A stretch of DNA of 64,000 nucleotides from Eledone cirrhosa (taxonomy: Eukaryota), in NCBI GenBank assembly GCA_964016885.1, contig OZ024743.1:74152001-74216000 (forward strand), read 5' to 3'. The position numbers and the translations under genes were made by a program. The notes under the pieces are model-generated. The model did no database searches. It worked only from the letters and a program-made list of their open reading frames with translations, and had not been told where the DNA came from. Positions 32,350 to 32,818 of this stretch are shown here, piece after piece. Each line of letters begins with the position of its first letter. Position 1 is the stretch's first letter.

Positions 32350-32818
32350 GAAATCCAGGGAAAAACCAATAGAGTCTTAATTCAGAATAAAATAAAGCTT
32401 AAATACTCATCCTTCAATTTGGAAAAACTACAAATGCTCTATATAGTCTTAAAAACACTATTTCACGAAACATTTCAGTGGGAATGGTCACATTTGGAAC
32501 CATTCATCAGTAGAGCTCAAACACGATAACCCTAGGTACCACTGCCAAAATACACCAAAAAGGGAATTTAAAAGCAGGCTAGTTCACCCCGTGCGTAATT
32601 ATAAAAATAAACACACATGGAGAGACATTTTTTGAAATCCAGGGAAAAACCAATAGAGTCTTAACTCAGAATAAAATAAAGTTTAAATACTCATCCTACA
32701 ATTTGGAAAAACTACAAATGCTCTATATAGTCTGAAAAAGACTATTTCACGAAACTTTTCAGTGGGAATGGTCACGTTTGTAGTCGTTCATCAGTAGAGC
32801 TCAAACACGATAATCCTA
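32350..32818 (-). mobile_element. 284-bp tandem dimer with one HHR per unit (retrozyme/pLTR-like)
   Basis: GAAATCCAGGGAAAAACCAATAGAGTC at 32350 and 32634; HHRs at 32436-32516 and 32720-32800. Confidence 0.8.
32720..32800 (-). ncRNA. Type I hammerhead ribozyme with a complete stem III (diverged copy at 32436-32516)
   Basis: Minus strand GCTCTA-CTGATGA-ACGA...TCGT-GAAA-TAGTCT-TTTTC-AGACTA-TA-TAGAGC. Confidence 0.85.

Follow-up and report, generated by a model that had tools for sequence, protein, structure and literature searches.

Type I hammerhead ribozymes are known from many animals, in the ends of Penelope-like elements and in the tandem arrays of retrozymes, and one further family of this kind is in itself ordinary. 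In the parts of the literature drawn on here, Penelope-like elements are described as inserting in partial tandems, with 5' truncation, a one-sided tail of 30–40 bp and a TA bias (PMC8557442). In the case of the anole Poseidon element the tail is explained by two internal starts of reverse transcription, and hammerhead cleavage is reported to be unnecessary for insertion in vitro (PMC11167929). The hammerheads of metazoan Penelope elements are given as minimal and not long-stemmed, large stems III being known from fungal and protist Penelope elements, and the large-helix-III hammerhead of the Serpula lacrymans type is given as active in its monomeric form (PMC4209133). In this regard, a stem III of 5–7 pairs is stated to remove the usual need to dimerise (PMC4209133, PMC7761336), and most invertebrate retrozymes are stated to carry type I hammerheads that are active as monomers (PMC7761336, PMC7229834).

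The locus described here lies in a window of 64,000 nucleotides, by which is meant the whole stretch of DNA that was analysed; the window is AT-rich and contains many TA, TG and other microsatellites. At the locus a direct repeat, R, of 192 bp occurs at 32343–32534 and 32627–32818 (blastn and alignment), the two copies being 93.2% identical, with 13 substitutions in 192 positions and no gaps, at an offset of 284 bp. Between them is a spacer, S, of 92 bp, which occurs once at the locus, such that the order on the minus strand is R (truncated)–S–R–T, where T is an extension found on one side only. The features, together with the flanking sequences, are as follows.

about 32819..32947, no strand assigned: TA microsatellite beside the 5'-truncated end, with the TA run itself at 32824–32947 (repeat scan)
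32627..32818, minus strand: repeat R, upstream copy in the RNA sense, 192 bp, 5'-truncated against the TA microsatellite (blastn and alignment)
32720..32800, minus strand: type I hammerhead, right copy, with a stem I of 6 bp and CUGAUGA at 32794
32535..32626, minus strand: spacer S, 92 bp, present once here (alignment; junctions in DNA runs)
32343..32534, minus strand: repeat R, downstream copy in the RNA sense, 192 bp (blastn and alignment)
32436..32516, minus strand: type I hammerhead, left copy, with a stem I of 6 bp and CUGAUGA at 32510
32281..32342, minus strand: one-sided 3' extension T, about 62 bp, a candidate Penelope-type tail (depth in DNA runs)
32240..32280, no strand assigned: end of a separate repeat that adjoins T and lies outside the element (copies in the window; run depth)

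In a preliminary description the locus was taken to be a dimer of two diverged tandem units. What stands of this is the repetition of R at an offset of 284 bp; S is single, and the left flank, considered as a diverged second spacer, agrees with S at only 23 of 92 positions without gaps (its local score of 19 is the 95th percentile of 500 shuffles), such that the locus comprises 1.7 units and is not a dimer. No further R, S or T was found in the 64-kb window by nhmmer. The T end of the element abuts the 32240–32280 repeat, which is itself near a TA run, has further copies at 45465–45500, 45565–45601 and 20549–20585, reaches a summed depth of more than 1 million in two of the sequencing runs discussed below (X1 and X2), far above that of the hammerhead family, and continues differently behind 32277 in the DNA runs. 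An insertion that split this repeat was considered and discarded, its other half not being seen to the right of the element. The context of the insertion site is that of one locus only, within a window crowded with TA runs.

Both hammerheads lie on the minus strand, at the mutual offset of 284 originally given for them, and both satisfy the type I core (CUGANGA, GAAA, NUH and stems I–III, with the ends in stem I). Motif scan and alignment bear out the GCTCTA/TAGAGC stem I (GCUCUA/UAGAGC in RNA) that had been pointed out in each copy, and in each the stem II opens with an A-U pair. In the right copy (32720..32800) a stem II of 4 bp carries a loop II of 31 nt and is followed by GAAA; its stem III is the perfect, looped 6-bp helix of the preliminary description, or 7 pairs if the core pair A15.1-U16.1 is counted, with a loop of 5 nt. 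Cleavage is predicted after AUA, at 32726|32725. In the left copy (32436..32516) the stem II of 4 bp includes two G-U pairs and again carries a loop II of 31 nt, stem III has 5 pairs followed by a G.G mismatch, and cleavage is predicted after AUA at 32442|32441, such that the predicted cuts of the two copies are 284 nt apart. The ATGG that replaces ACGA in this copy had been regarded as still pairable, and AUGG/UCGU can indeed pair with its two G-U pairs; the change is not harmless, however, since AUGG is predicted to enter a competing hairpin of 8 pairs that occupies G8, A9 and the 5' strand of stem II.

With a descriptor demanding at least 6, 3 and 5 pairs in stems I, II and III, respectively, 2 motifs are found in the real window and 0 in 200 dinucleotide-shuffled windows; the hammerhead motifs are real and beyond chance. 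Rfam at gathering thresholds returned no hammerhead from the whole window, and at E ≤ 10 over 32240–34200 it returned 24 matches, which fall on hairpins or TA runs beyond the limits of the element and include no hammerhead. A match of 5 pairs, seen by eye, between CAUUC of loop II and a GGAUG lying 25 nt beyond the site of cleavage is of a kind expected by chance. The stem III contrast drawn at the outset is upheld, in that the window's five other motifs (+31147, +42085, +43942, -31881 and -17354), which are minimal type I hammerheads with an AT-rich stem I, have a palindromic stem III of 3 pairs only. Such minimal motifs are typical of Penelope-type ends.

The ribozyme may be compared with those described. 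In the metazoan Penelope hammerheads of the cited texts, stem III is minimal or a small palindrome and the pair 10.1-11.1 is G-C, whereas 5–7 pairs, an A-U pair and a loop II of 31 nt are found here; invertebrate retrozymes are likewise given a stem III of about two pairs with a tetraloop. With the large-helix-III hammerheads of the Serpula lacrymans type (PMC4209133) the present motifs share the type I form and the large stem III, and in both no canonical geometry of loops I and II is apparent. As far as that source describes them, however, the Serpula-type hammerheads belong to telomere-associated, endonuclease-less elements of fungi and protists, whereas the present genome, to judge by its repeat content, is of animal type and no telomeric run is adjacent. 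A motif search found the long-stem-III type I shape to be common in phage contigs; among the viral-contig loci, L038 and L041 have two such hammerheads each and L126 three, and L077 and L078 lie on one 4.2-kb contig. The portions of text drawn on contain no description of a stem III of 6–7 pairs in an animal Penelope-type repeat, although similar long-stem motifs may occur in the figures and supplementary catalogues. Such a stem in an animal-type repeat seems mildly unusual, and is the only feature here of which this can be said.

The behaviour of the repeat elsewhere in the genome, or in related genomes, was followed in four DNA or likely-DNA runs (X1, X2, X4 and X5) out of seven, from which family records were drawn at 80% likeness. 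The numbers of matching records are 3314, 2902, 31 and 6814, with 751, 640, 3 and 4367 overrunning the ends of the region, apparently mostly on the 32240–32280 repeat. X1 and X2 are from one sample, X5 is a RAD-seq run, contigs drop rare variants, and run depth is not a copy number; the indexed runs contain 0.05–0.28 of the words of the locus (X5 was not indexed), i.e. they derive from other individuals or relatives. Nonetheless, with thousands of records, including dozens of distinct contigs with variants at single positions, the hammerhead repeat is a separate, high-copy family. The earlier proposal of a third retrozyme-like family thus survives as regards a separate high-copy hammerhead family of the retrozyme or Penelope kind, and is not supported as regards its unit of 284 nt, the junction of S with the following R being near absent in all four runs.

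The evidence for this lies in the order of the parts, which in the family is T-R-S-other in the plus orientation. The T-R join is common (depth of 12494.8 at 32341 in X1; 186 reads in X5) and is supported by a joint from 32304 to 32627 and by loose ends before 32633. The R-S join appears in four joints leading from 32801–32822 back to 32537–32559; these 'go back' joints were considered as signs of tandem arrays and set aside, as they show only that R adjoins S. In other copies S adjoins R on the 5' side of the hammerhead and continues past about 32626 into sequence that is absent here. At the S-R join itself, 32626|32627, the depth is 14.8 in X1, 5.29 in X2 and 0 in X4, with 14 reads in X5. 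At 32603, by contrast, the values are 2862.8, 3379.8, 2.66 and 59 reads, and at 32632 they are 2538.1, 1323.5, 2.68 and 105 reads. Among the 24 pieces listed, from a total of 6308, five end at 32621–32628 with 19–153 letters left over, one begins at 32627 after 33 unaligned letters and none bridges S and R; nor does any of the 14 joints listed lead from the end of S into R. Head-to-tail recurrence of a 284-nt monomer was not found in these data, in which there are 1.7 units here and an S-R join near zero in four of four runs of other individuals or relatives. In view of the near absence of this junction, 284 nt is probably not the unit of the family, and the spacing of 284 bp seems to be peculiar to the locus.

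These observations bear on the reading under which the locus would come from a genuine subfamily of non-LTR retrozymes whose monomer is 284 nt long; a circle of that length would have been reverse-transcribed by rolling for 1.7 turns, and the RNA would cleave as a monomer at both sites. Several features are shared with metazoan non-LTR retrozymes (Cervera and de la Pena 2020, PMC7229834; Li et al. 2026), in the portions of those accounts used here. There are two type I hammerheads in register, both with intact cores, and the interval of 284 nt, the low GC content, the lack of an ORF and the species-specific sequence are all alike (bioRxiv 10.64898/2026.07.22.740005). In-register hammerheads 150–450 bp apart with low GC and no ORF are what is looked for in a retrozyme, and the interval here, at 284 nt and 34.5% GC, agrees with this, as it does loosely with the rule in the same source of two consecutive units with hammerheads. 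Moreover, the four minority letters that the two R copies share (see below) are what a single template would give. The junction that would define the circle is, however, the one nearly absent from X1, X2, X4 and X5, and the locus, unlike described non-LTR retrozymes, has 1.7 units and a circle that is not predicted to be unusually self-paired: its MFE is -57.0, with z of -1.0 and 63% of its nucleotides paired, 29 of 200 shuffles being equally stable. Both copies are also predicted to misfold, and the same preprint gives one in nine predicted dimers as cleaved in vitro. A 284-nt family would survive only if its subfamily were missing from the analysed runs which, coming from other individuals or relatives, may lack a young 284-bp subfamily; this reading is accordingly held to be unlikely.

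The main rival to the interpretation preferred below supposes a longer monomer, R-T-X-S, probably of at least 450 nt, that belongs to a retrozyme or satellite; the locus would be a dimer of it from which T and X, between the two hammerheads, were lost by internal deletion or local rearrangement. A longer unit that had lost an internal part would leave junctions of the same pattern, and this reading accounts equally well for the repeated finding of T joined to R and of R joined to S, and for the lack of an S-R join; in addition, no ORF was found, and units of 51–972 bp are reported for retrozymes in the part of bioRxiv 10.64898/2026.07.22.740005 drawn on here. Against it, no record links the far end of S to T, and one X1 contig proceeds 153 letters beyond S without reaching T or R, which suggests that any such unit would be of 450 nt or more. 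The depth in X1 falls steadily along T, from its value at 32341 to about 6400 at 32322 and 2844.8 at 32312, which suits the ragged ends of an element, although divergence would do likewise. The longer monomer is therefore given a minor but appreciable chance of being correct.

On balance, the locus is judged somewhat more likely than not to be a single old, decaying insertion of a high-copy Penelope-like element, consisting of the hammerhead-bearing terminal region in partial tandem with a one-sided tail. If the order in the family RNA is X-S-R-T, AT-rich DNA would have been nicked by a reverse transcriptase of the Penelope-like kind, equipped with its GIY-YIG nuclease, and copying would have begun at the T end, run through R and S and stopped at 32626; a second pass would then have restarted at the R end, without the tail, and stopped at 32818. 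The point at which the first pass ended would then have set the 284-bp period, as an incidental result. The family hammerhead, by virtue of its long stem III, likely cut as a monomer, and both copies at the locus would later have gained the private changes with which they are now predicted to misfold.

The layout R-S-R-T with its locus-specific junction is that of a partial tandem of 5'-truncated copies with hammerheads, i.e. a pseudo-LTR arrangement, and the 5'-truncated copy, the longer copy, the one-sided tail and the TA-rich site are all points that fit a Penelope-like origin. Set beside Penelope and Poseidon, as far as PMC8557442 and PMC11167929 were drawn on, the locus is alike in having a type I hammerhead inside a direct repeat with many variable copies, and in its 5'-truncated partial tandem, one-ended extension and, at this one locus, AT/TA-rich site. 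It differs in the extension, which is about 62 nt here as against the 30–40 nt published for the Penelope tail, and in that no ORF is linked to it: no reverse transcriptase or GIY-YIG ORF lies between the pseudo-LTRs at the locus, and two of the frames of T and R, searched as proteins, gave no credible match. All three minus-strand frames over R-T are interrupted, with 4, 6 and 8 stops, and the idea of an ORF that opens, as in the anole Poseidon, with an AUG at the foot of stem II was rejected on these stops. A protein search with one R-T frame gave no match among 11 candidates, and a lone match of a second frame (E of 6e-4) was to a repetitive protein and was rejected. Pfam, applied to 126 of the 232 candidate stop-free stretches, returned 5 matches, none within the element; scans for the family pattern gave 0 matches in metagenome contigs, viral contigs and prokaryote genomes, and a sigma-70 scan, irrelevant to a eukaryote, stayed at chance level. 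As neither a Penelope ORF, looked for at the locus, nor a monomer recurring in tandem, looked for in the four runs, was found, the locus is assigned to neither class; by analogy, it resembles the hammerhead-bearing end of a Penelope-like element in its apparent mode of working, and a non-LTR retrozyme in size and composition.

Variation within the family gives some indication of its history. At 32456 the family majority has G (14651.6 of a depth of 15005.4 in X1), which restores stem III of the left copy. Stem I varies on both strands, with G at 32441 in 18259.5 of a depth of 41318.1 in X1 and, in X5, a loose end of 280 reads (agreement 0.64) that carries the matching change on the opposite strand. 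A second form of stem II, AUGAA/UUCAU, is likewise suggested by loose ends, in addition to ACGA/UCGU. The paired variants of the stems come from different records and not from one molecule, and the compensatory changes across the family hint at covariation without proving it; it is on account of these hints that the family hammerhead appears, from its sequences, to have been functional. Between the two R copies at the locus, most of the 13 differences are changes private to one copy, and four X1 minority letters are shared (32366/32650, 32375/32659, 32483/32767 and 32493/32777). Eight of the 13 differences fall in the 81-nt ribozyme, one of them breaking stem III, such that the ribozyme has not been spared; by arithmetic, roughly one case in three would be expected to keep an intact core by chance at such a divergence. 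The two copies look, on this comparison, like the products of one event followed by later decay.

In predicted folding, both copies fare far worse than natural long-stem-III motifs. By nearest-neighbour prediction, which leaves out core, loop-loop and tertiary contacts, the penalty for adopting the catalytic fold is 5.8 kcal/mol in the right copy and 10.9 kcal/mol in the left, with a stem II pairing probability of 0.00 in both. The 35 controls, type I long-stem-III motifs out of 126 phage-contig loci, have a median penalty of 0.56 kcal/mol, a maximum of 3.2 kcal/mol and a median stem II probability of 0.97, these being predicted motifs themselves, chosen with G-C at the base of stem II and nearly all with a short loop II. 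Longer contexts give penalties of 5.9–9.0 kcal/mol (right) and 11.0–14.9 kcal/mol (left), and the poor fold persists in truncated contexts (left, 8 of 8; right, 4 of 4). In the right copy the core is predicted to pair with the stem III region, aided by a private letter at 32734. Given the private changes and the predicted misfolding in both copies, the locus is predicted to release a 284-nt RNA weakly or not at all. The stem II of the family majority, as judged by eye, is likewise short, and the family may depend on an interaction of its large loop II.

The fact that stem II is not predicted to form, together with the missing Rfam match, is what could be said for a chance motif in a locally duplicated AT-rich stretch that was never a ribozyme. 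The empty shuffled windows, the thousands of family records, the majority letter that restores stem III and the paired variants on both strands of stem I speak against this, and render it exceedingly improbable. A further reading, in which an animal Penelope-like family carries a monomer-competent hammerhead of phage or fungal style and the locus is the birth of a retrozyme, with an accidental spacing of 284 nt yielding a circularisable RNA, would draw on the 7-pair stem III and on a loop II of 31 nt, possibly stabilised by a pseudoknot. It is regarded as quite improbable.

Several other elements of the window are of related interest. At 25660–26711 and 26707–27830 a unit of 310 bp forms a pair of inverted arrays (3.4 and 3.6 copies, 99% matches), in which a type I hammerhead can be made out by eye (CUGAUGA ... 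GAAA CGCG UA, a stem I of 6 pairs and U.U at the base of stem II); judged by sequence, these arrays are a much better non-LTR retrozyme candidate than the 284-bp pair, and related degenerate motifs occur near 23200–23240 and 30200–30245. The minimal motifs at 31147 and 31881 face each other over a TA run, as an inverted pair at 31119–31913. A second inverted pair, 32943–33035/33754–33842 (86% over 94 bp), contains a core resembling that of a hammerhead (CUGAUGA ... GAAAC GAUU GUC, minus strand, near 33030) with no clear stem I, and is possibly another decayed family. Short elements at 30843–31036, 33990–34176, 31882–32140 and 45465–45601 begin with near-perfect fold-back hairpins, with arms of 55–80 bp, and end in TA runs; they recur at 6913–7284 and 14358–14589, and resemble inverted 5'-truncated ends of Penelope-like insertions. 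Beyond these, a stop-free stretch on the minus strand at 47084–47821 matches Pfam RVT_1 (E of 3.3e-09), and a 21-bp satellite of about 455 copies, with extreme strand skew, fills 54591–64000 up to the end of the window.

On the minus strand at about 15600–17040 is a reverse transcriptase in broken form, accompanied by a CxxC...CxxC linker and by what is left of a GIY-YIG domain (Pfam E of 0.0038, under the cut-off); this is likely a Neptune-type Penelope-like element, the motifs at about 16440–17040 being like those of a reverse transcriptase. GIY-YIG matches under the Pfam cut-off occur at 2773–3012 and 15770–16093, and the putative remnant at 16441–17040 gave 0 Pfam and 0 PDB matches, such that the Penelope label stands on the resemblance of motifs and a sub-threshold GIY-YIG match. 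The minimal hammerhead at 17354 is upstream of this remnant, past a microsatellite. Penelope-like debris is thus presumably present in the window, which counts in favour of the Penelope-like reading of the locus.

The picture to emerge is that of a real and separate hammerhead repeat family, which is probably not a family of 284-nt circles, and the two copies at the locus are, on the folding predictions, likely past working. As a high-copy family of animal type with a stem III of 7 pairs, it would be of modest use in finding out if the hammerheads of Penelope elements need to dimerise in order to cut in vivo. Moreover, its locus-specific junction is the kind of intermediate that would be expected if, as considered in the consulted part of bioRxiv 10.64898/2026.07.22.740005, retrozymes arise from the ends of Penelope elements.
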